From Clostridia bacterium (GTDB taxonomy: Bacteria; Bacillota; Clostridia; Oscillospirales; Acutalibacteraceae), in NCBI GenBank assembly GCA_017454485.1, contig JAFTCX010000042.1, positions 32,178 to 96,177 of the forward strand: 64,000 bases of DNA, read 5' to 3'. This document shows, in pieces, positions 8,955-35,884 of the stretch. A program made the translations under genes and the position numbers. Position 1 is the first letter of the stretch. Each line of letters starts with the position of its first letter. The notes below the pieces were generated by a model. It worked only from the letters and a program-made list of their open reading frames with translations. It was not told the DNA's origin and searched no databases.

Positions 8955-9722
8955 TCAGTCTTCACCCGGAAAGAAAGAATTGAACTTCGTCTGTAAGTGT
9001 GAGACAAAGCCGCGCACAAAGGGATTGTGTCGCTCATATAAAAACAGAAGGTTCAAAATCCACAGCAGCGGAACAGTGTTGGAAATCGGCGTAACAGAAT
9101 TCACACAAGAAAGGATCATTGTTTGCGGCAGCGTGCAAAGTGCAAACAAAAATGTATGCTTCATGGTCTTCATAGCAGCTTTATCCGATGGTAATGCACC
9201 TGCGGTCGACGTGCGCATCACAAGAAAATACACAACCCAAAGCACTGCAAACAGGAAGAAAAAAAAGATCGTGTTTTTTGTATAAAAACCTTTTTCACTC
9301 TTGAAAAGACTAAACAGCATAACAACAGTTAATGCAACGCAAAACAGCCTTGCAACTGTCAGTCCGGCGACAGAAAAAAAGCCGCCTTTCTTGCCTTTTG
9401 CTGCATCAATCTGAATGACAAAGGACAGCATCGGGGGGATATAGGTCAGGATCATGAAAAAATCATACTGGTTTTCATAGCGCAAAAGGAAAGAAACTAC
9501 AAATAAAACGCCGACGCCGACAAAAGCCAACAGGCCGTTAATCGTCGGCGAAACGCCGTATAAAAACAAGCAATAGAACACAAACGGGAATATGAGTTCC
9601 ACAATCATGAGCGTTTCATCATAAATGAGATTTAGCGTCAACTGATAAAACATCCAGCATGTTGCAAAAAGAAGAAACAACGCAGTCACATTGAGAAGCC
9701 TGGCCTTCTTTTCTGTTTTCAT
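8955..9722 (-). CDS. Polytopic membrane protein, family not recognised (last gene of the envelope operon)
   Basis: 255 aa, almost entirely hydrophobic helices. Lies 38 nt downstream of the preceding gene on the same strand. Confidence 0.6.
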   Translation of the reverse strand: MKTEKKARLLNVTALFLLFATCWMFYQLTLNLIYDETLMIVELIFPFVFYCLFLYGVSPTINGLLAFVGVGVLFVVSFLLRYENQYDFFMILTYIPPMLSFVIQIDAAKGKKGGFFSVAGLTVARLFCVALTVVMLFSLFKSEKGFYTKNTIFFFFLFAVLWVVYFLVMRTSTAGALPSDKAAMKTMKHTFLFALCTLPQTMILSCVNSVTPISNTVPLLWILNLLFLYERHNPFVRGFVSHLQTKFNSFFPGED

Positions 9723-9760
9723 AGCTTTTCACCTGTTTCAAAAAAGAGTGACTATACGAA

Positions 9761-11023
9761 TTAAAAATACGCGAACACATGAATCATCGCATAGCCTAAA
9801 TAATACAATTTCACTTCCGGCCCGCCGGCAGCTTTTTTGATCTTTTCAAGTAAAAGTGCCGCCTTTTCCTTTTCATAATACATGATCAGAAGCACCGTTG
9901 TAAAGATCATCAAAAAGCCGTGTGTCAGCCAGCGGTTGACATCCACCGAAAACAATATTGCAACAAGGAATGTGAAGGGAAACTGTAGCAACATCAAAAG
10001 CGCACAAAAGCGCCCGATGCGATTGTTTGTCATGCGAAGATGCTGCAAAAGAAACTTATAAAACACGAGCAGTAACGGAAAAAGAATGACCAATCCCCCG
10101 ATAAAAGCAATAATAATATGAGAACCAATACTTTGCATCAAATCAAAATTGAAACGAACCTGATACAGTATGAGCTGCCAGATCTTATTCAGTGAAAAAT
10201 CCATGCCGGTCAGTTCCGACGGACGATAGTATTCTCCGCGGAACCAGTTATAAAAGGCATAATCGTAGTATTCAAAGAAATCGGTTCCATGTTCCTGCAG
10301 CTTTTGGTGAAAGGTTTCAATCGGGCAAATGAAACGCGGTTCATAAACCAGAAAGAACAAAAAAGACACAGCAGCCACAAGCATGGATAGTGCAAAAATC
10401 AACAAATAGATGCGACGCTCTTTCTTTTTTTGTTCAATCGAAGCACGATATAAAAGAATGATTGAAAAGAAAATAATCGCATTTAAAATTGCGGAAAAAT
10501 GGATCATGATGGAAGCGACATACAACAATGGGATCAAAAAGCGCAGCCATTTATGCTCCAAAAAAATCAAAAAGAGAAGAGAAAAAAAGAGCCAATAGAC
10601 ATCCAACATGCCAAGCTCCTTCGTATAAACGGAAAAAGTATAGGCCCCTGTAACATAAAACGCAAGCAGTCCCAAAGCGGCGCTGCGGTGTTCCGGCTGT
10701 ACACGCAACACAAATCGCTCAAGAAAGATCGATACACCCGCAAAAAAAAGAAGGATCAAAACTGTTTCATAAATCGAAGCGGTCAGTCTCGAAGCAAAAC
10801 GGCCGAAAAGCGCATTAAAAACCGCACCGGGCAACAGCTTAGTTGCTAAGCCGAGGCTGAAATCCACCGCGTGAAATGCATAGGTGATCTCCTCAACGCG
10901 CCAAGGCTGAAAACGGTTGACAACCACAACATGATACGCAACCAGAAACAGGAAAAAGAAGACGCTGTAACGGTGCTTTTTAAAAAAGGGTGACTGCCGC
11001 AGCGGCGTTTGAACTTTTGACAA
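9761..11023 (-). CDS. Large polytopic membrane protein, possible GT-C/GtrC-like glycosyltransferase (function inferred from context only)
   Basis: 420 aa with ten or more hydrophobic segments. Immediately follows a GtrB-like GT2, and the sequence is visibly A/T-richer than its neighbours. Confidence 0.6.
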   Translation of the reverse strand: MSKVQTPLRQSPFFKKHRYSVFFFLFLVAYHVVVVNRFQPWRVEEITYAFHAVDFSLGLATKLLPGAVFNALFGRFASRLTASIYETVLILLFFAGVSIFLERFVLRVQPEHRSAALGLLAFYVTGAYTFSVYTKELGMLDVYWLFFSLLFLIFLEHKWLRFLIPLLYVASIMIHFSAILNAIIFFSIILLYRASIEQKKKERRIYLLIFALSMLVAAVSFLFFLVYEPRFICPIETFHQKLQEHGTDFFEYYDYAFYNWFRGEYYRPSELTGMDFSLNKIWQLILYQVRFNFDLMQSIGSHIIIAFIGGLVILFPLLLVFYKFLLQHLRMTNNRIGRFCALLMLLQFPFTFLVAILFSVDVNRWLTHGFLMIFTTVLLIMYYEKEKAALLLEKIKKAAGGPEVKLYYLGYAMIHVFAYF

Positions 11024-11036
11024 ACGAGCACCTCCA

Positions 11037-11972
11037 TCAATAGCGAATACGCGCTTCTTCCACGATCAGCGGTTTCTCCGCAGCGTTTTTGGAAACGCCG
11101 ATTACATATTCGAACAAAACGGCAAGAAACACCAGTCCGATCAACACTGATGCCAGCAGCACACGCAGGACGAGCGCGTTCATAATGCTGCTGCCCGTGA
11201 GGGCTTTGGAAAAGAAAACGAAAAAGCAAACTGTTTCAATAAAAAGCAAAACCAGCATCACAAACGAAAAAACGATCATCCGGCGCGGTAAACGATCCGA
11301 TGCGCTGATGACACCGTTGATCGCAAAGTCATAATACTTATTCAGATTGAATTTTGTCTTCCCTCTTTCGCGTTTTTCCTGTGTATAAGTGATGCAGCTC
11401 AGATCATGCCCGTATTCCAGCACAAGGCCGCGAAGAAATGGGTGATTGTCACGTACACGCTGCAGCACACGGATAAAAGAAACGTCAAAGAGCTGAAACT
11501 CGGTAGCGTGCGGAATAAGCTTCACACCGAAAACGACATTCATCAGCCAATAATACACGGAACGAAGAAAAAACAAAATCACACTTTCTTTGCTTTTTGT
11601 CTTAACGCCCTGCACGATGCCTGCACCGTTTTCCCAAGATTCAACAAACTGCGGAATCAGCTCCGGCGGATTTTGCAGATCGGCATGAAGCAAAATGGCG
11701 CAGTCGCCCTTCGCCTGCTGCACAGCATAAAAAATGGTCTTACTATAGCCGAAATTGCGGGCATAAAGAACCGCTTTCACATGGGTATCCCGTTCACACA
11801 ATGCGCTGATACAAGCACGAGAGCCGTCAGTGGAACCGTCATCAAAAAAGACAAGTTCGTAATCGTACGCCGGCAACGATTGCATGACAGCCGTTACCCG
11901 GCGATACACATCCGGCAGATTGTCCTGTTCGTTGAACACAGGCACCACAATTGAAATAAGTTTCTTTTCCAT
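11037..11972 (-). CDS. Family 2 glycosyltransferase, polyprenyl-phosphate sugar synthase type (GtrB/ArnC/DPM1-like)
   Basis: ISIVVPVFNEQDNL and FFDDGSTDGS motifs. Two C-terminal TM helices (MIVFSFVMLVLLFIETVCFFVFF, LLASVLIGLVFLAVLFEYVIGV). Confidence 0.85.
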   Translation of the reverse strand: MEKKLISIVVPVFNEQDNLPDVYRRVTAVMQSLPAYDYELVFFDDGSTDGSRACISALCERDTHVKAVLYARNFGYSKTIFYAVQQAKGDCAILLHADLQNPPELIPQFVESWENGAGIVQGVKTKSKESVILFFLRSVYYWLMNVVFGVKLIPHATEFQLFDVSFIRVLQRVRDNHPFLRGLVLEYGHDLSCITYTQEKRERGKTKFNLNKYYDFAINGVISASDRLPRRMIVFSFVMLVLLFIETVCFFVFFSKALTGSSIMNALVLRVLLASVLIGLVFLAVLFEYVIGVSKNAAEKPLIVEEARIRY

Positions 11973-11985
11973 CGGTGTCAGCCTT

Positions 11986-13452
11986 TCATTTCAAGCCGTA
12001 TTTTTTGCGGATACCCGGATAAAAATGGGCATACCAGAACACATAAACAAATTCATAAAACGCCTTAAATCCGTCGATGAAGAAAAACAGCGGACCCTTT
12101 TGCGAGATTGCACGCAGACCGCTCAAAATGGTGTCCTTTGCAAATTCAAACGGCTTTTGATTTTCAATGGCATTTTTGTTGGCAAAGCTTTGCCAGTGCA
12201 GCCGGCTGCGTATCACGCGCAAGTCCACCGTCGGAACCGCCGAAAGATTTTGTCCGACGGATTCGGTTGCAATCACACGGGAAAGCTCTTTGAGCGAGTG
12301 CGGAACGCGATAGCGTCCGGCGGAAACAACGTCGTTATATAGCTCCGTACCGGGCAGCGGTGTAAAATGATAAACCGGCGTCAGATTTGCACTGAGCGCC
12401 TGCACGAGCGCAACAGTCTCTTTGAGCTGCGTTTCCGTCTCATCGGGATAGCCGATGATGAACGACGCAATCGTTGTCAGACCGAGATTCTGGATCTCTT
12501 CAAAGGTCGGAATGATCTTATCGTAAGGGATCGCTTTATGGATGCGACGCAGCATATCTTTTGAGCCGGATTCCACGCCGAAAAACGCACCCCGACAACC
12601 GGCGTCATACATGATTTCAAAATCTTCTTTGGTAAACAGGCCCACGCGTGTTTGGATGATCCAATGAAAATGCAGATCAGCGTCCTTCACACGTTTGCAA
12701 AAATCCAGCATCTCAGCGCGATTCGCCGCCCAAAGCTCATCGGAAAAATAGACGCCGTCCATGTTGTAGTTATCGATCAGATACTTGATCTCTTCGATCA
12801 CTACCGCGTTCGGGCGTTTGCGGTGGGTCGATTTATGAAAATAAGGGTTGGAACAGAATGCGCAGCGGCACGGACAGCCCTTGGAGGAATAAATGTACAT
12901 CAACCGCTCACAGCCGAGATAGGGCTGCAGATACTTTTCAACCTGAATGAGAGAATAATCCGTCGGCGGCAGCGTGGACAGATCAATAAACGGGCGGTCG
13001 GGCGTGCGGATGATCTTTCCGTTTTCACGAAAGGCGATGCCGGAAATGTCACTCCATTTACGTTTGCCGCTCACAACATCAAGCAGATCTCGAAAGGTAT
13101 ACTCCCCTTCACCGATGACGATGGCGTCAATATAAGGCTCCTGCAGCACAAGCTCGATCTGCATTGATGGCATTGCGCCACCCCAGACCACAGGAAACCC
13201 GAGCTTTTTTGCGCTTTTTGAAATACGGATCGCGTCCTTGAGTCCGCGCGATGACATTACGGAAACGCCGATAAGATCGGGCTGAAACCGCACAAGCAGC
13301 TTTTGAAAATTCACACGTTCCACACAGCGGTCAAGCAGACGCACTTCGTGGCCGAGGCTTTTCAGATAGGAGCCAATCGCCAAAAGACCCAAGGGGTTAA
13401 ACAGCGCTCTTGTATAATATCCGGTGGACGGATTGACCAAAAGGACTCTCAT
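11986..13452 (-). CDS. B12-binding-domain radical SAM enzyme (class B), paralog 2
   Basis: N-terminal MRVLLVNPS...LGLLAIGSYLK...DLIGVSVMSS (B12-binding-like) and radical SAM CPCRCAFC. The ATG at 13452 follows AGGTGG; the track start at 13461 is GTG. Confidence 0.85.
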   Translation of the reverse strand: MRVLLVNPSTGYYTRALFNPLGLLAIGSYLKSLGHEVRLLDRCVERVNFQKLLVRFQPDLIGVSVMSSRGLKDAIRISKSAKKLGFPVVWGGAMPSMQIELVLQEPYIDAIVIGEGEYTFRDLLDVVSGKRKWSDISGIAFRENGKIIRTPDRPFIDLSTLPPTDYSLIQVEKYLQPYLGCERLMYIYSSKGCPCRCAFCSNPYFHKSTHRKRPNAVVIEEIKYLIDNYNMDGVYFSDELWAANRAEMLDFCKRVKDADLHFHWIIQTRVGLFTKEDFEIMYDAGCRGAFFGVESGSKDMLRRIHKAIPYDKIIPTFEEIQNLGLTTIASFIIGYPDETETQLKETVALVQALSANLTPVYHFTPLPGTELYNDVVSAGRYRVPHSLKELSRVIATESVGQNLSAVPTVDLRVIRSRLHWQSFANKNAIENQKPFEFAKDTILSGLRAISQKGPLFFFIDGFKAFYEFVYVFWYAHFYPGIRKKYGLK

Positions 13453-13470
13453 TTGCACCACCTGTGTTGC

Positions 13471-14916
13471 TTATTTTTTGTGCAGCGTATGCCGCAGCAG
13501 ACGCATACCGTAGACAAAATAATGGATCAGCGCTCGCGGTTCGCGGATACACTCGCCCGCCTTGGCGATTAAATAACGAGGTCGCGTGTAAAACTGCAAT
13601 AAAAAGCGTCCTTTGAGTTCGAGCAGACGCTGCATACTGACAAAAGCGGTGCCGGTCGTGTTTGGAGTAACATAATCAAAGCCAAACGATCCACCGGACA
13701 GTGTTCCGGCATCGCGGCACAGATCATAAAGCTCCGTATCGTAAAACGGCATAGCAACGTGCAGCTCCACGAAATCGGGATCGATCCGGCGGATATGGGC
13801 AAACGTCTGCTGCAAATCTTCTTCAGTCTCCCACGGAAAACCGATCATAAAAAAGCCGAACAGCGGGATGCCTGCCGCTTTGATCATGGCAGCGGCTTCC
13901 AGATTCTTTTGTACACTCGTGCCTTTTTTCATTTTGTTCAGCGAACCATCACTGCCGCTTTCAAAGCCGATGGCAAGCATAAAACAACCGGCATCTTTCA
14001 TTTTTTGAAGCAGCTCGGTCGAAAGCGTGTCTGCGCGGCCGTTGGCGGTAAATGCGATTTTTCCGTGAAGCGGCGAGTGGATGATACGCTCACACAATGC
14101 AATCGCCCATGGCTTGTTCAGCGTAAACGTATCCGCTTTGAAAAAGAAATCGCGGATGCCGAATTTATAGTAGCATTCCATCAGTTCCTCAAAAATGTTT
14201 TCTGTAGAACGATAGCGCACATTACGCCCTGTAATATGCGGCGTCAGACAATAGATACAGTGCGACGGACAACCGCGCGCAACAGAAATCGTTGCCATCG
14301 GTGCGCCGGTGTCGGGCCGGACATAAAGCGCATTGTTCATCAGATCACGCGCAGGAAACGGCAGCGTATCGAGGTTAGGCGTTTCACAGGAAAACACCGT
14401 TTTGTGTGCGCCGGTTTCGTCAAAATAAACGATGCCGGGAATCTCCGAAAGCTTGCCTTCGCTTCGCAAGAGACAATCGACCACAGGTGCAATAACAAAT
14501 TCCACCTCGCCGCCGATCGTGCAGTCTGTTAAGGAAAAATCGAGCGACTGTAACCGTTCGAGCTTTGCGTCAAAGAAAATAGCGCCCTTCAAAACGATTT
14601 TGCAGTTGACAATTCCACGCACCTGACGGACAAAACAGAGATCATCATAGATCGTTGCATTTGTGGTGCTCAAAAACACAAGGTCCGGACAAAACGCGCG
14701 CAGATCGCGCTCTACATCGGAAAACACTTTGCGCTCTGTCTGATAATCACGCAGAAAAACTTCATAACCGCGCGCACGAAGAATGGAAGCTGCATAGCCG
14801 AGATCGTTGCAGGCGTGCACAGAGCTTGCCGTGGAGTCCTCAATGTTGCACTGTGCCCTGTCCTCGCCGCGCTGATAAAGCTTTCCTGGCGGATAGAGAA
14901 GCATGACCTTGTTCAT
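13471..14916 (-). CDS. B12-binding-domain radical SAM enzyme (class B), paralog 1
   Basis: VMLLYPPG...DLVFLSTTN N-terminal domain and radical SAM CPSHCIYC. The ATG at 14916 follows GAGGGTGA and avoids overlap with the upstream gene; the track start is 14943. Confidence 0.85.
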   Translation of the reverse strand: MNKVMLLYPPGKLYQRGEDRAQCNIEDSTASSVHACNDLGYAASILRARGYEVFLRDYQTERKVFSDVERDLRAFCPDLVFLSTTNATIYDDLCFVRQVRGIVNCKIVLKGAIFFDAKLERLQSLDFSLTDCTIGGEVEFVIAPVVDCLLRSEGKLSEIPGIVYFDETGAHKTVFSCETPNLDTLPFPARDLMNNALYVRPDTGAPMATISVARGCPSHCIYCLTPHITGRNVRYRSTENIFEELMECYYKFGIRDFFFKADTFTLNKPWAIALCERIIHSPLHGKIAFTANGRADTLSTELLQKMKDAGCFMLAIGFESGSDGSLNKMKKGTSVQKNLEAAAMIKAAGIPLFGFFMIGFPWETEEDLQQTFAHIRRIDPDFVELHVAMPFYDTELYDLCRDAGTLSGGSFGFDYVTPNTTGTAFVSMQRLLELKGRFLLQFYTRPRYLIAKAGECIREPRALIHYFVYGMRLLRHTLHKK

Positions 14917-14921
14917 CGGTC

Positions 14922-15644
14922 TCACCCTCTTTGCGTTACGCACCGCCTTGCATATTGCAAATCGGCAGGCGTGTTGATGTTAATTTCTTCGGCAGCAATC
15001 GGAAACGCGGTTCCCGTTTTGCCGTTATCGATCAGGAAATTGATAAAGTCACACAGCTCGTTCGGCTGATTGCTTTCAGCGTCATAAACTGCTTTCAGCA
15101 GCTCATAGCAGTCCTTGGAAAACAGGCAAAAACCGGTGCCTTTGCGGTCGTTAAACACCTGTTTCGGCTTTTCCGTGCAGTGCAGCAGACGGTCATTCTC
15201 ATCCGTGTCCAATGAAAAATTCTGACGGATCTTCTCTTCTGTCGATGTGGTAAAGCCAACCAGAAAGTCTGCTTTTTTAAATGCGGAAAGGAGTATTTCC
15301 GCAGAAGCCGGCTGCAAAAAGACCTCGTCGCTCAACTGCAGAACCAGATCATCTCTGATCGTTTCCTTTGCGCAAAGAATCGCGCTGACAAGACCGATCG
15401 GCTGCGCCTGAACAACATATTGCAGTTTTATGCCGCGATAGCTGTCACCGAGCGTATCAATGATCTGCCGATGATGCGAACCGATCACGATGACCGCCGA
15501 TTTCACGCCCAGCCGCACGAGATTGTCAAGGGAATAGGAGATGAGCGGCACGCCGCCGACTTCGACCAATGCCTTGCACACCTCATTCTGACCGCTCTGC
15601 GACAGTCTTGAGCCTTTCCCGGCCGCTAAAATCAAACCTACCAC
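14922..15644 (-). CDS. Sugar-phosphate nucleotidyltransferase
   Basis: VGLILAAGKGSRL N-terminal motif and ~240 aa length are typical of the NTP_transferase fold. GTG start preceded by GAGGT. Confidence 0.8.
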   Translation of the reverse strand: MVGLILAAGKGSRLSQSGQNEVCKALVEVGGVPLISYSLDNLVRLGVKSAVIVIGSHHRQIIDTLGDSYRGIKLQYVVQAQPIGLVSAILCAKETIRDDLVLQLSDEVFLQPASAEILLSAFKKADFLVGFTTSTEEKIRQNFSLDTDENDRLLHCTEKPKQVFNDRKGTGFCLFSKDCYELLKAVYDAESNQPNELCDFINFLIDNGKTGTAFPIAAEEININTPADLQYARRCVTQRG

Positions 15645-15653
15645 GTTGTTACC

Positions 15654-16826
15654 TCAATTGCTGTTTTTTTCAATCATAGAAAGCAGTGCATCCGCACTGT
15701 TCAGGCTGTGCATGTGCTCCATCAGCAGAACACCTGCATTCATAATTTTACGCTCATACTGCACGCGCTGCGCTGATTTGAGCAGATCAAATTCGGGAAT
15801 TTTCGCAATGCCAATCGTGCGACGCAAGCATTCCGCACCGGCAAACCCTGCGGTATCGGCAAAAACAGAAGCGATGAACGAATCAAGAAAGCGCTCGTTT
15901 TGCAGCACAGCATCCGTGCAGTCCATTTTGACGGCGGCACGAAACTCTTTTTCAAACGAGCGCAACATCTGCGCTGTCATTTTCCGCAGCCACAATTCAA
16001 ACAATGCGTCGCCCCCACGAACACGCACATACAACGTTTCCATCAAGAAGTGTGCCAGCAGATTGCCGAGATCGAACCCAATGGGACCAAAGAAGCAAAA
16101 TTCCGGATCGAATATTACCGGCGTATCCCCGTTTAGGAACACAGAACCAAAGTGCAGATCGCCGTGCAGCAGCGCTTGCGTCACATTCATAAATCGAAAT
16201 TTCAGTTCTGCGGCACACTGCCTAAGCTGCTTATTTTGATAGATCCGCTGCTCTAGAAATGCAGCGTTTTCCGTGCATACCCCGTTTTCCTTTGCGCCTA
16301 CAAAGGGGTCGGTCAGTACCAGCTTTTCCGTCAGATCGCACAGCTCCGGATTCGAAAATGACTGCTGCAGCTCTCGTTTTTTTGGGTGCGTAAGACAGAA
16401 GTCCGATGTGGCTGCTGTCGTTTTTGCAACGAATGCCCCAAGCTGTTCGCCGAGATGTTCGCTTTGCCGTTCGGAAAGCAGAGCTCTTCTGAGCACAGGG
16501 CAGTTTTTCATGTCCTGCATCACGATCAGATGCAGTGCTTCATCATAGGCAAACACTTGCGGCAGCATCTCCGGCAGCCGTGCGGCAAACAAATTGAAAT
16601 ATGCCGCCTCCCGTTTGCCGCGGTCTGTGTTCAGGCAGATGTCCGGCGATATGCGCGAAACATATTCCGCCTGCTTTAAAACCACCGAACGGCCGCTTTT
16701 TTGCTCTGTTGCACGGTAAATATGGTTGATGTTGCCCTCGCTGATCTCTTCAAAGCAGAGCACAGCATCCGAGGAAAATATCGTTTGCTTCAGATAAGCT
16801 TCAAACTGTTTTTCATCCTTCGGCAT
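15654..16826 (-). CDS. MtnK-family kinase (5-methylthioribose / 5-deoxyribose kinase-like)
   Basis: EGNINHIYR, FSNPELCDLTEKLVLTDPF, LLHGDLHFGSVF and DPEFCFFGPIGFDLG closely resemble B. subtilis MtnK motifs as I recall them. Confidence 0.8.
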   Translation of the reverse strand: MPKDEKQFEAYLKQTIFSSDAVLCFEEISEGNINHIYRATEQKSGRSVVLKQAEYVSRISPDICLNTDRGKREAAYFNLFAARLPEMLPQVFAYDEALHLIVMQDMKNCPVLRRALLSERQSEHLGEQLGAFVAKTTAATSDFCLTHPKKRELQQSFSNPELCDLTEKLVLTDPFVGAKENGVCTENAAFLEQRIYQNKQLRQCAAELKFRFMNVTQALLHGDLHFGSVFLNGDTPVIFDPEFCFFGPIGFDLGNLLAHFLMETLYVRVRGGDALFELWLRKMTAQMLRSFEKEFRAAVKMDCTDAVLQNERFLDSFIASVFADTAGFAGAECLRRTIGIAKIPEFDLLKSAQRVQYERKIMNAGVLLMEHMHSLNSADALLSMIEKNSN

Positions 16827-16833
16827 AGCTGGT

Positions 16834-18312
16834 TCAGCTCCAGGGATTCTCCGTCGGATAAGGCAGAGCTTTCGGCTGGTTATAGGCGATATCCTTCACA
16901 CCGAGGAAGCGGAACACTTCGAACAGCGTTTTGCCGAAATGCCCGAACGCCACAGCGCCGTGATGCGGGAAATGCTTTTCAATCAGCACATGGCGGTAGA
17001 ATCTGCCCATCTCCGGGATCGCAAACACGCCGATGCCGCCGAAGGAACCGGTAGGAACGTCGAGCACCTCGCCCTGTGCGATATAGGAGCGCAAAACGCC
17101 CTCACTGTCGCACTGTAAGCGGTAAAACGTGATGTCACCGGCGGCAATGTCGCCTTCCAGTGTACCGCGGGTGAAATCGGGCTCGCTGTCGGCGGGCTCA
17201 AGCAGACGGTGTTGGATGAGCTGATACTTGATTGCGCGGTTGGCGCACATTTTGCACGACGGCGTATTGCCGCAATGGAACGCCATAAAGGTATCCGTGA
17301 GCGCATAGGCGGATTTGCCCTGAATCTCTTTTTCGTAAAGAGACGCGGGAACAGAGTTATTGATATCAAGCAGTGTGACGGCGTCACCGGAAATACACGC
17401 GCCGATGTACTCGGAAAGTGCGCCGTAAATGTCCACTTCGCACGCCACGGGTATGCCGCGCGACGCAAGACGGGAGTTCACATAGCAGGGTTCAAAGCCG
17501 AACTGCTCCGGGAAAGCCGGCCAGCATTTATCCGCAAAGGCAACATATTTACGATCGCCCTTGTGCTGCTGAGCCCAATCGAGCAATGTCAGTTCAAACT
17601 GTGCCATACGCGGAAGAAGTGACGGATAGTTGTTGCCGGTCACACCGAGTTCATTCGCCATATCCTCGCACACGGCCGGAATGCGTTCATCGTTTGCGTG
17701 CGCTTTATAGGAGACGAGCAGGTCAAGCTCGCTGTTTTCTTCAATTTCAACGCCAAGCTCATACAGCCCTTTGATTGGTGCGTTGCAGGCAAAGAAATCC
17801 TGCGGACGCGGACCGAAGGTAATGATCTTCAGGTTTTTCACACCGATGACTGCGCGTGCGATCGGCACAAATTCAGCGATCATGGAAGCGATATCATCCG
17901 CAGTGCCGACCGGATAGGACGGAATATAGGCAGGCAGATGACGCATGGCAAGGTTATAGGAACAGTTGAGCATACCGCAGTAAGCGTCACCGCGGCCGTT
18001 GATCAGATCACCGTCACCCTCTGCGGCGGCAACAAACATACAAGGGCCGTCAAAGTATTTTGCAAGCAGCGTCTCCGGCGTTTCGGGACCGAAGTTTCCG
18101 AGGAACACGACCAGCGCGTTGCAGCCGGCGGCGTTTACATCAGCGATTGCCTTTTGCATATCCAGTTCGTTTTCCACAGTCACCGGGCATTCATAGATCG
18201 CGCCCTTGCAGGCTGCAACAATGGCCTCGCGGCGTTTGACAGAAAGCGCAATGGGGAAACAGTCGCGCGATACGGCGACAATGCCGAGCTTTACTTCAGG
18301 AATATTGTTCAT
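16834..18312 (-). CDS. L-fucose/L-arabinose isomerase family protein
   Basis: 492 aa. KLGIVAVSRDCFP N-terminus and GIPVACEVDIYGALSEYIG catalytic-region-like motif. AGGAGG RBS before the ATG. Confidence 0.72.
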   Translation of the reverse strand: MNNIPEVKLGIVAVSRDCFPIALSVKRREAIVAACKGAIYECPVTVENELDMQKAIADVNAAGCNALVVFLGNFGPETPETLLAKYFDGPCMFVAAAEGDGDLINGRGDAYCGMLNCSYNLAMRHLPAYIPSYPVGTADDIASMIAEFVPIARAVIGVKNLKIITFGPRPQDFFACNAPIKGLYELGVEIEENSELDLLVSYKAHANDERIPAVCEDMANELGVTGNNYPSLLPRMAQFELTLLDWAQQHKGDRKYVAFADKCWPAFPEQFGFEPCYVNSRLASRGIPVACEVDIYGALSEYIGACISGDAVTLLDINNSVPASLYEKEIQGKSAYALTDTFMAFHCGNTPSCKMCANRAIKYQLIQHRLLEPADSEPDFTRGTLEGDIAAGDITFYRLQCDSEGVLRSYIAQGEVLDVPTGSFGGIGVFAIPEMGRFYRHVLIEKHFPHHGAVAFGHFGKTLFEVFRFLGVKDIAYNQPKALPYPTENPWS

Positions 18313-18368
18313 GGATCTTCCTCCTTGAAATCATTGCAATTGAACACAATCATCCAATTTTTCATTTT

Positions 18369-18397
18369 ATTATAGCATTACGCCCTCAAGAAGTCAA
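18369..18397 (-). promoter_or_regulatory. SigmaA-type promoter of the nine-gene operon (TTGACT-17 nt-TATAAT)
   Basis: Reverse complement of 18392..18397 is TTGACT and of 18369..18374 is TATAAT, with a 17-nt spacer. Lies between an upstream terminator and the isomerase RBS. Confidence 0.55.
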
Positions 18398-18421: not shown

Positions 18422-18453
18422 ATAAAAAACGCCCGTTCGAAAATGAACGGGTC
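18422..18453 (-). terminator. Rho-independent terminator after the 76-aa gene
   Basis: On the minus strand, CCCGTTC-ATTTTC-GAACGGG hairpin, then (after C,G) TTTTTTATTT. Confidence 0.65.
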
Positions 18454-18472: not shown

Positions 18473-18703
18473 TTATTTGTTGTTCTGCCAAGCCTCTGCC
18501 TTCGCTGCGGAAATCGACTTGATGTCTTCCTTGGTGTAAGGAGACGTTTCGCCGCCGTTGACATAAAGGAAATAGTAACCCTTCGGGGTTTGATAAAGCG
18601 ACTCCTCGTAGCCATCCGGATTGCCGAACTCACCGAAGGTGCGCTTTTCGATCAGCGTAGAAACTTCCGTATCATACTCTCTTTTGCAGATGATCTTTTT
18701 CAC
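18473..18703 (-). CDS. Small hypothetical protein (76 aa), monocistronic
   Basis: GTG start 8 nt after AGGAGG. Flanked by terminators on both sides. No family recognised. Confidence 0.55.
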   Translation of the reverse strand: MKKIICKREYDTEVSTLIEKRTFGEFGNPDGYEESLYQTPKGYYFLYVNGGETSPYTKEDIKSISAAKAEAWQNNK

Positions 18704-18854
18704 GATGGAATCCTCCTTTCTTCGTTTGTTGTGTTATTTTAACACGCAAAAGGCACAAATACAATAGGCAAGTGGGATGAATTCCACATAAGAAAACAAA
18801 CGAGATTTAGATAATTTGTCTAATGCTCTTTTCTGTTTTTGTGCAGTTTTTCAC

Positions 18855-18882
18855 AAAAAAGAGACGCCCGACAGAGCGTCTC
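18855..18882 (-). terminator. Rho-independent terminator after the 507-aa secreted-protein gene
   Basis: On the minus strand, GAGACGC-8 nt loop-GCGTCTC followed by TTTTTTGTG. Confidence 0.65.
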
Positions 18883-18890
18883 AAGTTGGA

Positions 18891-20414
18891 TCACTGATCC
18901 GCCACGCGAACAAGGCCGTTAAACACGCCGACATAAGCACTGCCATTCGGACCTATAGTGATCGGTCCGTAGCTGTTGTTCCAGTTGCGCCCGCAGCCGG
19001 TGAACACTTTATACACCGTTTCGCCGGTTTCAAAATCGACTGCGGTAAAGTACCAGGCCACCGCGTTTTTCGGAATATCGTCGTTTTGTACGCGCGTATA
19101 GAGATAGACAAGACCGTTGCCGGCAGAAAGCTTCGGCACCACCGTTGCGGAGGCTTCGTCACTTTCCCAGATGACCTTGCAGCCCGTGCAGTCCGCATTC
19201 ATGTCGATGCGCGTCACGCCGGGTTCGCTGGTTGGATTACGCTCCAGAAAACCGGCGCCGGATTCAGAATAGTTGTTTTCAATGATAAACGAACGGCCGT
19301 GAGCAATCAGAGAGTTTTCGCTGACTGAGCGCCCTTTTGCAAACAGCGGCTCGGTCACGATCGCTTCGCCCGTTTCGCGGTCATAGACCACAAGGTTCAC
19401 TCGCTCATCGGCGTTATCGGTGATGGCGCAAAGCTTGCGCACACTGCCGTCGCTGCTGGGAACATCAAGCAAAGACGGCGTTGTTCCGCTGCCCTGGTTG
19501 ATCGCTCCGGGTTTTGTTTGGCTTCCGCGATCATATTCCGTGCGCCAGGTATAGGTCGGTTTGCCCTTTTGAATTTCAAAGCGGTACATTGCATGGTCGG
19601 AAACGATATACACCCCGTCCGCGCAGACCGCAAGGGTGTTTTGGATCTCCTCCCCTGCCAGCCGCATGAGCTTGACTTTGCCGGTCTTTGCGCCGATGAT
19701 GCCCACGTCGCCAGGACGCGTCACAAACCAGATGTTGCCGTTGACATCGGGAATCGCGTCGGTGATGTAGGCGCCCTCTTCCAGATACGGCGCAACGTCA
19801 ATTTCCTTTTCGATCTTCCAAACCGGCTTCTTTCCGCTCTCGTCCACATAGAAAATCTGGATCACATTGTCGGAGTTGCCGATGATCGGTCGGTCACCCT
19901 TGAGCAGATGGCAGTATGCGCCGCCGGAGGTGTCGTTGGAAATCTTATCAAAATCGAGCGTTTTGAAGAACTCGCGCGTGGACTGACGCTGCGGCAGACG
20001 CGTTTCGGCAAGGATCTCCAATGTCTGCGCGTCGAGCAGCAGCAGACGGAAGCCGACAACATTACCGGAAATGCACATAATGCGCCCCTTGGAATCAAAC
20101 ATGAGCGTTGCGACCAAACCGCCGAAGACGTTCATAGAACGGCTGGTAACCTTCGGATTCCGGCCGAGCGGGCCACTGTAATCATAGGTGCCGGAGTTGT
20201 AGGAATTGCCGTGCATACCGTTGGTGCCCTCCGGCGCAAGGAAGGGATGCTGCGGCACTTTTGTTTTTTCAAGCGGCTTGGCGGTTGCGACTGCGCCGTA
20301 AAACGGCGGACAGCGCCTTGCAATCAGCGGCTGACGGATCGCACCGCAGGGGCTCGTGAACAGCATGATGAATGCGGAAAAGAATGTCAGAACTTTCAAA
20401 AACAGGTTACGCAT
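18891..20414 (-). CDS. Secreted protein of unknown function (possibly repeat/beta-propeller-like)
   Basis: Signal-peptide-like N-terminus MRNLFLKVLTFFSAFIMLFTSPCGA. AAGGAG RBS. No catalytic motif recognised. Confidence 0.7.
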   Translation of the reverse strand: MRNLFLKVLTFFSAFIMLFTSPCGAIRQPLIARRCPPFYGAVATAKPLEKTKVPQHPFLAPEGTNGMHGNSYNSGTYDYSGPLGRNPKVTSRSMNVFGGLVATLMFDSKGRIMCISGNVVGFRLLLLDAQTLEILAETRLPQRQSTREFFKTLDFDKISNDTSGGAYCHLLKGDRPIIGNSDNVIQIFYVDESGKKPVWKIEKEIDVAPYLEEGAYITDAIPDVNGNIWFVTRPGDVGIIGAKTGKVKLMRLAGEEIQNTLAVCADGVYIVSDHAMYRFEIQKGKPTYTWRTEYDRGSQTKPGAINQGSGTTPSLLDVPSSDGSVRKLCAITDNADERVNLVVYDRETGEAIVTEPLFAKGRSVSENSLIAHGRSFIIENNYSESGAGFLERNPTSEPGVTRIDMNADCTGCKVIWESDEASATVVPKLSAGNGLVYLYTRVQNDDIPKNAVAWYFTAVDFETGETVYKVFTGCGRNWNNSYGPITIGPNGSAYVGVFNGLVRVADQ

Positions 20415-20437
20415 AAGAATCTCCTTTCAAAAGCATG

Positions 20438-20471
20438 CAGGGGCTGAATGCGCACAAAGCCTCAGCCCCTG
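20438..20471 (-). terminator. Intercistronic 10-bp hairpin, weak or partial terminator between the GPH transporter and the secreted-protein gene
   Basis: CAGGGGCTGA-14 nt-TCAGCCCCTG. Only a short, displaced U-run (CATGCTTTTG) follows on the minus strand, directly before the downstream RBS. Confidence 0.4.
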
Positions 20472-20483
20472 ATTTCAAATGGT

Positions 20484-22061
20484 TCAGTTTTCTTTTGCTG
20501 CGTTTCTTTTTTCAATCAGCGCGTCCAGCATCTCACCGTGCTGCGCATCTGTCATTGCGTATTTTCGCATCGGAACAGCAGAAAGAACCATACCGACAGC
20601 GATCGGGACAGAGATCAGGAAGAACATGGCAAGCGCGTATTTGCCGCCGTCAAGATCGAAGAAGTGCTCGCCTTGGGAAAGGCGGAAGTTGATATTATCG
20701 AGGTTTTCGCCGGAGAACTTCACAACGGCGTACACAATGCCCTGAATGAGTGCGGCAATACCGCCGGAAAGCTTTGTCAGGAAGGATTGGCCGGAGAAGA
20801 AAACGCCGTCGGGACGATACCCGTTATGATATTCCTCATAGTCCACGCAATCGGCGATCATGATGGACTGCATGACGTTGATGCCGCCCATAGAAGCGGT
20901 CGCAAGGCTGATGCAAAGTGCCGTCACGATCACGCCTGACCAGGAGAGCATGTTGCCTTTGAAAGCAAGATATGCGACAAAGATGAGCGCATACGGCACG
21001 GCGCCGGCAATGGAATAGAAGTTATAGATTTTTTTATTTTCGAACTTTTTCACAAACGCAGGCGTAATCGCCATGGCGACAAACTGCGGAATGAACACAG
21101 CAATGCCGATCAATGCAATCTTCAGCACACGCTGACCGCCGTCAAGGTTGCCCACATTGTCGAAAGAGTTATCGGTGTAATAATAGAGCATGAGCGGCAT
21201 AGCAAGGATCATCAGAAGCTGCAGCGGGCTTCTGAGCACGCCGGAGATGAGGATCTGGCGGAAGGGCAGACATTTCCACATGATTTTGAAGTTGTCAATG
21301 ATGCTTCTCTTATCTGTAGCGTCGCCGGGAACACGCTCTCTTGTTACAAGACCTGCAACCTCAAAGAGGATCGTTGCAACCACAGTGACAGCGATCACCG
21401 TGGCGATCCAGGCGGCTCGCTTGGTGTCGTTGTTCGCCATCTGCTGGGTATAGTTGATGCCGTCCACCATGGCGTTGTATTTGCCTTCAAACATTCCCTT
21501 GAGGAAGTCGGGCACAAAGGCGATGACAGTGCCGATGCCGCCGATACCGGCAGCAGTTCTTGCAAGGCCGATGATCTTGGCGCGGTCGTTTTGATCGTCC
21601 GTCATCAAAGATGTAATGCCCCAAAGCGGAATGTCGCAGACGGTGAAGAGCATGCCCCAAATGATATACGAACCGGCAGCCCAGATCACGATCAGCGCTT
21701 TGCTTGCCTTCGGATCGGTATAGATGCCGTTGACAAAGCAAAGGATGGTGAAAATGCCGATGAGAAGCGGAAAAAAGATCAGATAAGGTCTGCATTTGCC
21801 CCATTTGGTGTGCGTTCTGTCCACGATGGTGCCCATCATCGGGTCGTTCACCGCGTCCCAGATGCGCGCGACAAAAATAATTGCGCTGACGATACCGGCA
21901 GGAATATACAGCACGGTGCCGAGATAGACGCTGACAAGACCGGCCGCGATAACCTGATAAATCAGGTTCTGGCCGAACATACCGATCAGGAAACCGAACA
22001 GCTCGCCCTTTGTATAGGTATTTCGGGCGATTTTTGCTGCGGTATCTGCTTTCTTTTTCAT
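20484..22061 (-). CDS. Glycoside-pentoside-hexuronide (GPH) family cation symporter
   Basis: 525 aa, about 12 TM. Signature ARIWDAVNDPMMGTIVDRTHTKWGKCRPY. Confidence 0.85.
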   Translation of the reverse strand: MKKKADTAAKIARNTYTKGELFGFLIGMFGQNLIYQVIAAGLVSVYLGTVLYIPAGIVSAIIFVARIWDAVNDPMMGTIVDRTHTKWGKCRPYLIFFPLLIGIFTILCFVNGIYTDPKASKALIVIWAAGSYIIWGMLFTVCDIPLWGITSLMTDDQNDRAKIIGLARTAAGIGGIGTVIAFVPDFLKGMFEGKYNAMVDGINYTQQMANNDTKRAAWIATVIAVTVVATILFEVAGLVTRERVPGDATDKRSIIDNFKIMWKCLPFRQILISGVLRSPLQLLMILAMPLMLYYYTDNSFDNVGNLDGGQRVLKIALIGIAVFIPQFVAMAITPAFVKKFENKKIYNFYSIAGAVPYALIFVAYLAFKGNMLSWSGVIVTALCISLATASMGGINVMQSIMIADCVDYEEYHNGYRPDGVFFSGQSFLTKLSGGIAALIQGIVYAVVKFSGENLDNINFRLSQGEHFFDLDGGKYALAMFFLISVPIAVGMVLSAVPMRKYAMTDAQHGEMLDALIEKRNAAKEN

Positions 22062-35823: not shown

Positions 35824-35855
35824 AAGTATCCTCCTTACCATATGAATACAGTCTA

Positions 35856-35884
35856 ATTTTACCACCTGTTTTTGCAAATGTCAA
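35856..35884 (-). promoter_or_regulatory. SigmaA-type promoter of the giant gene (TTGACA-17 nt-TAAAAT with TGg extended -10)
   Basis: Reverse complement of 35879..35884 is TTGACA and of 35856..35861 is TAAAAT. Lies between the upstream terminator and the RBS. Confidence 0.55.

Follow-up and report, generated by a model that had tools for sequence, protein, structure and literature searches.

Results

Organization of the operon

Within the window (the whole 64,000-nt stretch analyzed here), eight co-directional genes occupy positions 18312..8955 of the minus strand, according to both the ORF listing and independent gene calls taken from public contigs of identical sequence. An earlier note on this DNA had counted nine genes, which neither source bears out; its own title names eight functions. 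The transcript begins with a FucI-like isomerase gene (492 aa; 16834..18312), followed by genes for a kinase of the MtnK clade (390 aa; 15654..16826), a sugar-1-phosphate nucleotidylyltransferase (NTase; 240 aa; 14922..15644; PF00483) with the motif LAAGKGSRL, and two radical SAM proteins, rSAM_A (481 aa; 13471..14916; CPSHCIYC; PF04055) and rSAM_B (488 aa; 11986..13452; CPCRCAFC; PF02310 and PF04055). Further downstream lie the genes for a GtrB/ArnC-type GT2 glycosyltransferase with a C-terminal membrane hairpin (311 aa; 11037..11972; PF00535) and for two membrane proteins without an assigned family, the 13-helix TM420 (9761..11023) and the small, roughly 8-helix TM255 (8955..9722). The recomputed intergenic gaps (7, 9, 5, 18 or 9, 13, 13 and 38 nt, in gene order) agree with the tight spacing of 5-38 nt reported earlier, and every peptide motif quoted there was found in the translations. 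The GC content drops to 40-42% across the TM420 and TM255 genes. The host is an uncultured MAG of rumen Clostridia.

The sigma-70-type promoter described upstream of the operon (TTGACT-17-TATAAT with an extended TG; 18369..18397, minus strand; 11/12 matches) was recovered as the top scorer among 16 promoter-like sites in our scan. The total number of such sites is not above chance (13.2 expected); this one is intergenic, and its -35/-10 block is kept upstream of xylB in the related locus L005 despite differing flank sequence. Beyond it, the terminator proposed earlier was also found, as an intrinsic-terminator-like hairpin with a T-run (18422..18451, minus strand; stem 18451..18432, 7 pairs; tail CGTTTTTTAT) that follows an upstream 76-aa ORF.

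The isomerase gene and the divergent cassette

As judged by comparison with relatives, the operon splits in two: an isomerase gene of flank type and a divergent, low-GC cassette of seven genes. Identity between relatives is 88-95% in the flanks and runs from 85% down to 27% among the cassette proteins, while rSAM_B is present, absent or swapped. The conserved flanks, divergent proteins, GC drop and rSAM_B turnover together indicate that the cassette evolves in the manner of surface antigens.

Profile searches matched only the C-domain of the isomerase (PF02952), and no match was obtained among PDB sequences. The counterparts in L005, L010 and L055 show 91% identity for the isomerase but only 61-62% for the kinase. 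A xylulokinase gene (XylB equivalog) lies directly upstream of the FucI-like gene in L005 and L055, the two are translationally coupled in relatives, and the homologous promoter there precedes xylB-fucI. Moreover, in L056 the FucI-like gene is 5'-truncated with the rest of the cassette intact, and it is missing from every other lineage examined. Since the gene is truncated beside an intact cassette, conserved with the flank and coupled to XylB, it is dispensable to the pathway, and the earlier view of the isomerase as a pathway step does not hold; on this comparative evidence it is a catabolic hitch-hiker, a remnant of a xylB-fucI pair in the conserved flank. The promoter of that catabolic pair would now drive the whole downstream cassette.

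The cassette genes, by contrast with the isomerase, travel together: kinase, NTase, rSAM_A, GT2 and, in some cases, rSAM_B recur in unrelated contexts, with ribosomal genes and the gene of a giant surface protein as neighbors (L007), at the end of a Bac_transf/GT2/Wzx/Wzy polysaccharide cluster (L009) or next to a GtrII-family protein (L011). In about 24 loci the NTase accompanies rSAM_A as its core partner, and in L041 it is fused to the GT2. The recurrent linkage, the Wzx/Wzy context and this fusion all favor the route suggested earlier, from kinase to sugar-1-phosphate, NDP-sugar, polyprenyl-phosphate sugar and extracytoplasmic transfer. From these loci, the conserved core is seen to comprise the NTase, rSAM_A, the GtrB-like GT2 and the unclassified, putatively GT-C-like 13-helix membrane protein.

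The kinase and the origin of the sugar

The kinase scored 333.5 bits against the NCBIfam MtnK equivalog TIGR01767 (cutoff 275) and matched Bacillus subtilis MtnK (2OLC; E 8.5e-64), retaining the HGD, DxE and RR motifs, and its earlier placement in the MtnK family therefore stands. The NTase-linked kinases nevertheless form a clade of their own, apart from canonical MtnK; since this clade shares only 30-35% identity with characterized MtnK and the Bacillus-type W-loop is missing, its specificity may differ from that of MtnK. L016 carries, in place of the kinase, a DeoD-type purine-nucleoside phosphorylase (288.6 bits, cutoff 230) and an MtaD/DadD-family deaminase. By family assignment, this pair constitutes the second known route by which 5'-modified adenosines yield a sugar-1-phosphate, and the swap lends independent support to the earlier suggestion of a sugar derived from by-products of SAM. 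Characterized MtnK/DrdK members accept only MTR and 5-deoxyribose and reject ribose (PMC6079011). We consider the kinase most likely to be an accessory entry step yielding a 5-substituted ribose-1-phosphate. Three independent lines, namely the MtnK-like kinase, its replacement in L016 and the UbiA-linked rSAM_A orthologues described below, point to a ribofuranose-type sugar, and the predicted product of the cassette is probably a lipid-linked pentofuranose of the 5-deoxy or 5-methylthio type.

The kinase is absent from most NTase-type loci that were found without the kinase as query, and in seven NTase-type loci no kinase is present although 4 kb or more of upstream sequence is available; among the independently found loci, the kinase occurs in L019 only and the phosphorylase route in L016 only. 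Because the kinase is missing from most loci, the sugar-1-phosphate could be an ordinary metabolite, e.g., ribose-1-phosphate. The same architecture would then handle plain D-ribofuranose or an epimer (D-arabinofuranose or D-xylofuranose), with the kinase clade an evolved ribose 1-kinase: ribose-1-phosphate from a nucleoside phosphorylase or phosphopentomutase would be converted to the NDP form, loaded onto undecaprenyl phosphate and epimerized by rSAM_A. Consistent with this, in loci where a UbiA enzyme accompanies the rSAM_A orthologue, synthesis begins with PRPP and thus with ordinary ribose, the DeoD-type phosphorylase of L016 belongs to a generic purine nucleoside phosphorylase family, and the W-loop that the kinase lacks is said to tune MTR specificity. 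However, the rejection of ribose by the characterized enzymes argues against it, as does the L016 deaminase, which is of the MtaD/DadD type rather than an adenosine deaminase. Plain ribose could also take the simpler PRPP/UbiA route that relatives have, and a separate NDP route would make most sense for a sugar without a 5-hydroxyl. We therefore regard a plain-ribose product as possible but unlikely.

The usual job of MtnK/DrdK enzymes is salvage or disposal (PMC6079011), the two radical SAM enzymes of the operon generate 5'-deoxyadenosine, and the isomerase gene adjoins the kinase gene. The earlier note had offered the alternative that isomerase and kinase dispose of the 5'-deoxyadenosine-derived sugar made by the two radical SAM enzymes; in such a unit 5-deoxyribose or MTR would be detoxified, and the glycosylation genes would be unrelated neighbors. 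The comparison of loci makes this very improbable. Neither an MtnA/DrdI-type isomerase nor an aldolase was found in any of the loci, and the isomerase that is present is FucI-like, coupled to xylulokinase and truncated in L056. Moreover, the NTase lies directly downstream of the separate-clade kinase in every lineage examined, and the L009 module sits inside a Wzx/Wzy cluster. In contrast to MtnK/DrdK salvage, the product is here proposed to be channeled to a glycan and not to central metabolism.

The radical SAM enzymes

The earlier note described twin B12-radical SAM enzymes, which is only half right. rSAM_B matched the B12-binding family PF02310 with 72.5 bits (cutoff 32.1), whereas rSAM_A scored 25.7 bits for B12 binding, under the same cutoff, and 87 bits for PF04055. 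The closest PDB match of rSAM_B is the glutamine C-methyltransferase 9CCB (PMC11796369; PMC12931638), and rSAM_B, a class-B cobalamin-dependent radical SAM enzyme, is a probable C-methyltransferase acting in optional tailoring. Its occurrence varies: L056 has none, in L016 and L025 it is duplicated, and in L007, L015, L027 and L029 a B12-radical SAM protein of 640-655 aa takes its place.

For rSAM_A, the closest PDB match is AprD4 (6FD2; 2e-23), although against the AprD4 family model it reached 92 bits (cutoff 500) over about half of the protein; its top NCBIfam similarity is to HpnJ (155 bits), and every such match lies far under its cutoff. AprD4, the radical SAM diol dehydratase that acts with the reductase AprD3 in C3' deoxygenation of apramycin, has a B12-like domain yet falls outside the B12-dependent enzymes (PMC12931638). 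The substrate class differs from that expected here, and the window lacks an SDR. rSAM_A is the most conserved protein of the cassette; its orthologues are 45-78% identical, and they always adjoin a polyprenyl-phosphate sugar synthase of the GT2 or UbiA/PPPRS type, often with a DprE2-like SDR. Those at 45-52% identity adjoin UbiA enzymes matching decaprenyl-phosphate phosphoribosyltransferase models (213.9 bits for L036, cutoff 207), in loci that additionally encode DprE2-like SDRs, an HAD phosphatase and a GtrA-like protein. The SDR immediately follows rSAM_A in L016, L036, L038, L039 and L041, and in L040 a UbiA-like ORF lies between the two.

The decaprenyl-phospho-arabinose pathway comprises the UbiA enzyme Rv3806c, a phosphatase, the oxidase DprE1 and the reductase DprE2. 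Relatives pair rSAM_A with all of these parts but DprE1, of which no homologue was found among the L039 genes scanned, and this suggests that rSAM_A fills the DprE1 slot, albeit as a radical SAM and not an FAD enzyme. The window encodes neither a UbiA enzyme nor a DprE2-like reductase, and L056 has rSAM_A without an SDR and without rSAM_B; hence, simple oxidize-then-reduce epimerization is not the whole story here. We propose rSAM_A, AprD4-like and with a degenerate B12-like N-domain, as a candidate ring-remodeling enzyme of a (possibly lipid-linked) pentofuranose.

The glycosyltransferase and the membrane proteins

Residues 6-303 of the GT2 align with GtrB (5EKP; E 2.5e-36) over the full length, including the C-terminal membrane helices, which corroborates its assignment to the polyprenyl-phosphate type; ArnC matched at 1e-25, and the best NCBIfam match, to PgfS, reached 174 bits without passing the cutoff of that model.

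TM420 gave no match in Pfam or NCBIfam. Its AF2 model (pLDDT 93.5) has 13 helices, in keeping with the ten or more TM segments noted earlier; the GT-C assignment made there remains tentative, since the top four Foldseek matches in the PDB are all GT-C enzymes but at E values of 0.19-0.95. Neither a significant structural or sequence match to GT-C enzymes nor profile similarity to GtrII was found. D54, in the loop following TM1, is invariant, the family comprises 758 representative clusters, and homologues occur in almost all NTase-type loci, lying downstream of the GT2 in L014, L015, L016, L029 and L049. TM420 is thus a candidate GT-C-type transferase that would use the lipid-linked sugar outside the membrane. 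TM255, which had no family match in Pfam or NCBIfam, evolves very fast (only 3 clusters among 5.8 billion proteins), and its AF2 model (pLDDT 52) is unusable, with no assignable fold. Weak homologues adjoin TM420 homologues in L005, L014 and L029; by position only, TM255 is a candidate flippase or accessory subunit.

Alternatively, the cassette might yield some other product, lipid-linked or soluble, with TM420 and TM255 serving as transporters or polymerases; examples are an HpnJ-like ring-contracted hexose-derived or cyclitol unit and a LicA/LicC-style phospho-alcohol head group. Pairs of APH-kinase and NTase also activate choline or MurNAc. The best partial matches of the NTase are of the AglF, RmlA and GlmU types, and MurU and LicC structures are among its weak matches. 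The HpnJ similarity of rSAM_A and the lack of a significant GT-C match for TM420 fit such a product as well. We nevertheless find it distinctly unlikely, given that the kinase exceeds the MtnK equivalog cutoff with its ribose-binding motifs retained, that the UbiA enzymes beside rSAM_A orthologues resemble phosphoribosyltransferases, and that the only structural neighbors of TM420 with a probability above 0.4 are GT-C enzymes.

Discussion

The data presented here show that the genes are linked, that the cassette has evolved as a mosaic and that the isomerase is dispensable, and they underlie the assignment of families. Our preferred reading, to which we give slightly better than an even chance, is that of a variable cassette of seven genes for a surface glycan, built on the three-component plan of extracytoplasmic glycosylation, which handles a 5-substituted pentofuranose remodeled by rSAM_A. 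The kinase would phosphorylate a 5-substituted D-ribofuranose (5-deoxyribose or 5-methylthioribose, from 5'-deoxyadenosine or methylthioadenosine) at its anomeric position, the NTase would make the NDP-sugar, and the GtrB-like GT2 would load the sugar onto undecaprenyl phosphate. rSAM_A, acting on either the NDP-linked or the lipid-linked form, would then remodel the pentofuranose ring at C2/C3, either via a keto intermediate or in a direct radical epimerization or deoxygenation, in the role of DprE1 or SDR epimerases in aerobic pentofuranose systems, and rSAM_B could add an optional C-methyl group. Finally, the lipid-linked sugar would be flipped, possibly by TM255, and transferred by TM420 to a wall polymer or surface protein. 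What we infer in this scheme is which sugar is used, in what order and by what chemistry the radical SAM enzymes act, which proteins serve as flippase and transferase, and what the acceptor is.

By analogy, the cassette is a variant of three-component and MTX-type glycosylation systems. MTX is a pentofuranose made from the SAM by-product MTA and carried on a GT2-made decaprenyl-phosphate donor; MtxS (Rv0539) is the GT2 polyprenyl-phosphate-MTX synthase, and MtxT (Rv0541c) is the polytopic GT-C enzyme of extracytoplasmic transfer (PMC11127046; PMC8780516). The MTX precedent named earlier is apt (PMC11127046): the window shares the logic of the Mycobacterium tuberculosis pathway, as judged from published descriptions, and in addition encodes a dedicated enzyme for sugar entry, a member of the MTR-kinase family. 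It differs in its route of entry (an MtnK-type kinase with an NTase, for which L016 has phosphorylase and deaminase), in tailoring by two radical SAM enzymes, in a putative transferase of unclassified family and in its host, a Gram-positive anaerobe.

The system of Citrobacter youngae O1/O2 consists of PPPRS-PRP, a MATE flippase, a GT136 GT-C enzyme and an auxiliary SDR epimerase (Kelly et al., 2024; PMC11127046). Its parts list matches that proposed here (lipid-linked pentofuranose donor, flippase, GT-C enzyme and sugar-changing auxiliary enzymes), and L036, L038 and L039, with UbiA phosphoribosyltransferase, HAD phosphatase, GtrA-like protein and SDR, match a system of this type. In the window, however, an NTase and a GtrB-type GT2 replace the PRPP-dependent UbiA synthase, a radical SAM enzyme takes the auxiliary epimerase slot, and no recognizable MATE/GtrA flippase or GT136 member is encoded. 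The order of a GtrB/ArnC-like GT2 followed by polytopic membrane proteins also recalls the Gtr (GtrA/GtrB/GtrC) and the Gram-positive CsbB-GtcA-YfhO/PgfS-type systems, which, unlike the window, use common UDP-hexoses and have no kinase, NTase or radical SAM genes of their own. In AmgK/MurU sugar salvage an APH-fold anomeric kinase is paired with an NTase, and the pairing in the window mirrors it. A pathway that makes a lipid-linked donor for the cell surface from a ribose-type remnant of SAM chemistry would have its only precedent known so far in the tuberculosis bacillus.

Results

Gene unit and surroundings

Eight tightly packed minus-strand genes occupy positions 18312-8955, with gaps of 5-38 nt according to the ORF listing and to gene calls on identical public contigs. 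In order, they encode a FucI-like isomerase of 492 aa (16834-18312, minus strand), an MtnK-like kinase (390 aa), a nucleotidyltransferase (NTase, 240 aa), two radical SAM proteins, rSAM_A (481 aa) and rSAM_B (488 aa), a GT2 glycosyltransferase (311 aa) and two polytopic membrane proteins, TM420 and then TM255; the seven genes downstream of the isomerase are referred to as the cassette. An earlier note, made from the sequence alone, had described a candidate envelope-glycan operon of nine genes; its gap lengths are correct and every peptide motif that it quoted occurs in the translations, while the number of genes has to be lowered to eight, no ninth being present among ORFs down to 25 aa. The promoter that it had proposed, TTGACT-17-TATAAT (18397..18369, with a TG extension), proved to be the top-scoring site of a region in which promoter-like sites are overall no more numerous than expected by chance; it lies between genes, and a relative retains its -35/-10 block. 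A terminator-like hairpin (18451..18432), likewise expected, lies just upstream of it.

Downstream of the eight genes lies frr-uppS-cdsA-dxr. On the same strand upstream (18473-22061, minus strand), there is a conserved unit comprising an MFS_2 transporter, a secreted 507-aa protein with a signal peptide, which has only a weak PQQ_2/beta-propeller match, and a 76-aa ORF (91-92% identical in relatives); this unit may serve glycoside uptake alongside xylB-fucI. Further away, a radical SAM protein with a SPASM domain (24440-26047, plus strand) adjoins an ORF of ~87 aa (493-756 in locus L001) and a two-component system, and may form with this ORF a peptide-maturase pair bearing no relation to the glycan cassette. 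An unusual architecture, a STAS domain fused to an APH-type phosphotransferase domain, is encoded at 37331-38515 (minus strand).

Isomerase and mosaic divergence

The isomerase (91%) and the other flanking proteins are 88-95% identical to those of the window in its closest relatives (loci L005, L055 and L010, the last from a rumen Ruminococcaceae MAG), the exception being the MFS_2 transporter of L055 (45%). Divergence is far greater within the cassette, where identities across the same relatives are 61-62% for the kinase, 64-67% for the NTase, 74-78% for rSAM_A, 85% for rSAM_B, 77-81% for GT2, 49-56% for TM420 and 27-30% for TM255. This mosaic pattern suggests that the cassette may set strain-level surface variation. 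Moreover, GC content is 40-42% over TM420 and TM255 (9000-11000) vs. 50-55% in the flanks, which is typical of exchangeable serotype genes and is compatible with an exchange of the membrane components by horizontal transfer.

The same comparison bears on the sugar isomerisation step of the earlier note, which we abandon, since the isomerase is found in one lineage only and is not co-inherited with the cassette. In the three relatives, the start of the isomerase gene is overlapped by a gene for a XylB xylulokinase equivalog (515.8 bits, cutoff 380), and the promoter region of the window is homologous to the stretch upstream of the relatives' xylB; hence, the window has lost xylB cleanly. In a further locus, L056, xylB and the first 80 isomerase codons are missing while kinase-NTase-rSAM_A-GT2-TM-TM is intact, and no isomerase was found near the module in any other lineage examined. 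Synteny, the identity gradient and this truncation thus rule out the isomerase as a step of the pathway, and it is predicted to be the remnant of a neighbouring pentose-catabolic pair that has lent its promoter to the cassette. The FucI-like protein has no sequence match in the PDB and carries the C-terminal Pfam domain only; since it is translationally coupled to the XylB equivalog in relatives (L005 7124-9993; truncated form L056 4514-5752), it may be a non-canonical pentose isomerase that supplies xylulokinase.

Enzymes of the cassette

The kinase had been assigned to the MtnK family, and it indeed exceeds the cutoff of the NCBIfam equivalog TIGR01767 (MtnK, S-methyl-5-thioribose kinase; 333.5 bits vs. 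275) and aligns to Bacillus subtilis MtnK (2OLC, E 8.5e-64). Its HGDLH (residue 221), DPE (240) and LRRT (334) align with D233, D250/E252 and R340/R341 of 2OLC, preserving what we take, from the B. subtilis structure, to be the catalytic HGD, the Mg-binding DxE and the twin-arginine substrate motif. The W-loop (GESWP), a semi-conserved element linked to specificity for 5-methylthioribose (MTR), is absent from the window kinase, which has SPDICL instead, and its Trp is also missing in the whole NTase-linked clade. Since many ordinary clostridial MtnK-like proteins likewise lack the W-loop, it does not discriminate, and we dropped it as a marker of the glycan-linked kinases. Eight kinases with protein identifiers (the window kinase, P0003, P0007, P0008, P0010, P0013, P0022 and P0027) define a clade of 34 sequences without canonical MtnK. 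The NTase gene lies directly downstream of the kinase gene in every lineage examined (kinases at 40-66% identity), and no MtnA/DrdI-type isomerase or aldolase partner was found in the loci examined. Family searches bear out the nucleotidyltransferase assignment, the protein being a generic sugar-1-phosphate nucleotidylyltransferase.

GT2, previously described as GtrB-like with two C-terminal transmembrane helices, matches PF00535 (86.8 bits), GtrB (5EKP, E 2.5e-36 over residues 6-303 of 311) and ArnC (1e-25), and two hydrophobic segments are visible at the C-terminus of its translation; it is thus predicted to be a full-length GtrB/ArnC-type polyprenyl-phosphate glycosyltransferase. It does not reach the PgfS equivalog NF047588 (174.2 bits vs. 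cutoff 500).

For TM420, at least ten transmembrane segments had been expected; the AlphaFold2 model (pLDDT 93.5) has 13 long helices. The protein has no Pfam or NCBIfam match, and hhalign against the GtrII-family protein of locus L011 returned nothing. Its top four Foldseek neighbours in the PDB are all GT-C enzymes (PglB twice, GPI mannosyltransferase I and STT3; E 0.19-0.95) and ArnT ranks 15th, none of the GT-C matches being significant (E 0.19-5, TM-score 0.31-0.42). D54, invariant in 43 sequences, lies in the loop after the first helix (18-35), where GT-C enzymes carry the catalytic acid, and the K/R-rich N-terminus would place it outside the membrane. The TM420 family comprises at least 758 representative clusters at 50% identity and has no Pfam model; Pfam scans of its distant members yielded CotH fusions only, namely P0245 and P0251 (~900 aa), which carry an N-terminal CotH kinase domain. 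TM255 matches no Pfam or NCBIfam model, has just three homologous clusters, which makes it nearly an orphan, and gave an unusable AlphaFold2 model (pLDDT 52); by position, one might guess that it is a flippase.

The two radical SAM proteins had been taken for twin B12-dependent enzymes, which applies to rSAM_B and does not extend to rSAM_A. With PF02310 at 72.5 bits (cutoff 32.1), PF04055 at 67.6 bits and a CX3CX2C motif (CPCRCAFC), rSAM_B is predicted to be a bona fide class B (cobalamin-dependent) radical SAM enzyme, and its nearest solved structure is 9CCB, a glutamine C-methyltransferase (PMC11796369, PMC12931638). It is absent in L056, doubled in L016 and L025, and elsewhere swapped for a larger B12-radical SAM protein. 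Always divergent beside this 640-655-aa replacement, there is a 246-251-aa protein with no Pfam match (L007 13368-14123, L015 12079-12837, L027 6608-7348, L029 11438-12178). In rSAM_A (CPSHCIYC), PF02310 scores 25.7 bits, below the cutoff of 32.1, and the closest relative with a solved structure is AprD4, a radical SAM diol dehydratase, which a review sets apart from the cobalamin-dependent enzymes as "unrelated" (PMC12931638). rSAM_A is the best-conserved protein of the cassette, with orthologues 45-78% identical.

Distribution of the cassette

Using TM420 homologues and an rSAM_A alignment as queries, we recovered ~40 further loci, in which rSAM_A always adjoins a polyprenyl-phosphate sugar synthase. 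About 24 loci are of the NTase type, consisting of a kinase, a phosphorylase with a deaminase, or neither, followed by NTase, rSAM_A, either rSAM_B or the 640-655-aa protein, GT2 and a TM420-family protein; these loci often also encode a small membrane protein with weak similarity to TM255. In L041 (179-1654), the NTP_transferase and GT2 domains are fused in one 491-aa protein; downstream of it, an rSAM_A orthologue, an SDR and a membrane protein of 587 aa are encoded. In the UbiA-type loci (L028 and L035-L040), the rSAM_A orthologue stands beside a UbiA protein matching decaprenyl-phosphate phosphoribosyltransferase models (213.9 bits vs. cutoff 207 in L036). A DprE2-like SDR follows rSAM_A in L036, L038, L039 and L040; L038 and L039 additionally contain a GtrA-like ORF together with genes for a HAD-IB phosphatase and for a membrane protein of 514 aa, and the surroundings of L039 include Wzx, GT4 and aminotransferase genes.

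The kinase-NTase module is found at the end of a Bac_transf/GT2/Wzx/Wzy polysaccharide cluster in L009, beside the GtrII-family protein in L011 and before a 2382-aa surface protein in L007. Giant proteins are encoded directly after the cassette (L007 17500-21182, L015 15172-21215, L029 17922-21410), their sizes ranging from 1163 aa (running off the locus end) to 6903 aa; these neighbours hint that surface proteins could be glycan acceptors. The window also encodes, 12 kb from the cassette, a 1907-aa protein with a Listeria-Bacteroides repeat (30154-35877, minus strand).

Discussion

Three independent lines indicate that the sugar would be of the ribofuranose type, namely the MtnK-family kinase, the phosphorylase and deaminase of L016, and the phosphoribosyltransferase partners of distant rSAM_A orthologues. 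Phosphorylase and deaminase together form an alternative route from methylthioadenosine (MTA) or 5'-deoxyadenosine to a sugar-1-phosphate, as in the pathways of Pseudomonas aeruginosa and Methanocaldococcus jannaschii. In L016, a DeoD-type phosphorylase (above cutoff) and an MtaD/DadD-family deaminase replace the kinase within one tight operon. The kinase family and the L016 enzymes thus point towards an MTA-derived sugar, although the kinase is missing at many loci. Since seven of these, each with 4 kb or more of DNA upstream, were found without the kinase as query, a sugar-1-phosphate that is plain ribose-1-phosphate is a serious rival, against which it speaks that the MtnK/DrdK enzymes characterised so far act on MTR and 5-deoxyribose only and not on ribose, phosphorylation at C1 being known for DrdK (PMC6079011). 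A sugar that lacks the 5-hydroxyl could not pass via PRPP, which would explain a separate NDP/GT2 route.

The pathway chemistry, all of which we infer for an uncultured organism, would start with the kinase forming a sugar-1-phosphate, which the NTase would convert to an NDP-sugar and GT2 would load to give undecaprenyl-P-sugar. rSAM_A would then remodel the sugar ring and rSAM_B could, as an optional step, C-methylate it, before the lipid-linked donor is flipped across the membrane and TM420 moves the sugar onto a wall polymer or surface protein.

The known systems that most resemble this pathway are the mycobacterial methylthioxylose (MTX) cap and the pentofuranose systems of the three-component type (Kelly et al., 2024; PMC11127046). 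The PRPP-dependent UbiA synthase and the phosphatase of the latter are absent from the window, which has NTase and GT2 instead. For their epimerase, an ORF13-type SDR or DprE1/DprE2, we propose rSAM_A as the functional substitute in the window. Their dedicated flippase (MATE, SMR or GtrA) likewise has no corresponding domain in the window, unlike in L038 and L039 with their GtrA-like ORF. The UbiA-type loci reproduce the parts list of the three-component system and the DPA pathway (PMC11127046), with rSAM_A in the DprE1/SDR-epimerase slot. Since the 64-kb window encodes no DprE2-like SDR and rSAM_A stands alone in L056, it may complete the epimerisation or rearrangement unaided, or borrow a reductase encoded elsewhere.

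Our furthest-reaching proposal, which we hold tentatively and which may well be wrong, is that the rSAM_A family is an oxygen-independent counterpart of DprE1/SDR epimerases and would oxidise, epimerise or deoxygenate pentofuranoses carried on polyprenyl phosphate at their C2/C3 positions. The window enzyme would act within a pathway in which 5-deoxyribose or methylthioribose, by-products of radical SAM and polyamine chemistry, is recycled into a 5-deoxy or 5-thiomethyl pentofuranose that may be C-methylated. A new family of GT-C-like transferases would expose this sugar on the surface of rumen Clostridia, as the first MTX-like glycosylation outside mycobacteria. Our literature search retrieved no description of this gene set, of a radical SAM analogue of DprE1, of a radical SAM enzyme partnering polyprenyl-phosphate pentofuranose synthases or of MTR-derived glycans.

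Kelly et al. (2024; PMC11127046) consider it unclear whether pentofuranoses derived from MTA are used for glycosylation in processes other than lipoarabinomannan assembly, and the cassette is a concrete, testable candidate for such a use. If the proposed pathway is correct, a nucleotide-sugar route (kinase, NTase and GtrB-type GT2) would join the known PRPP route to lipid-linked pentofuranoses, the conserved rSAM_A family would gain its first function, perhaps as the anaerobic equivalent of DprE1, a drug target, and TM420, for which Pfam has no model, would represent a new transferase family. Moreover, anaerobic gut and rumen Firmicutes would turn toxic SAM by-products into surface antigens. 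Strain-level surface variation set by the cassette would be relevant to interactions with phages and with the host in the rumen.
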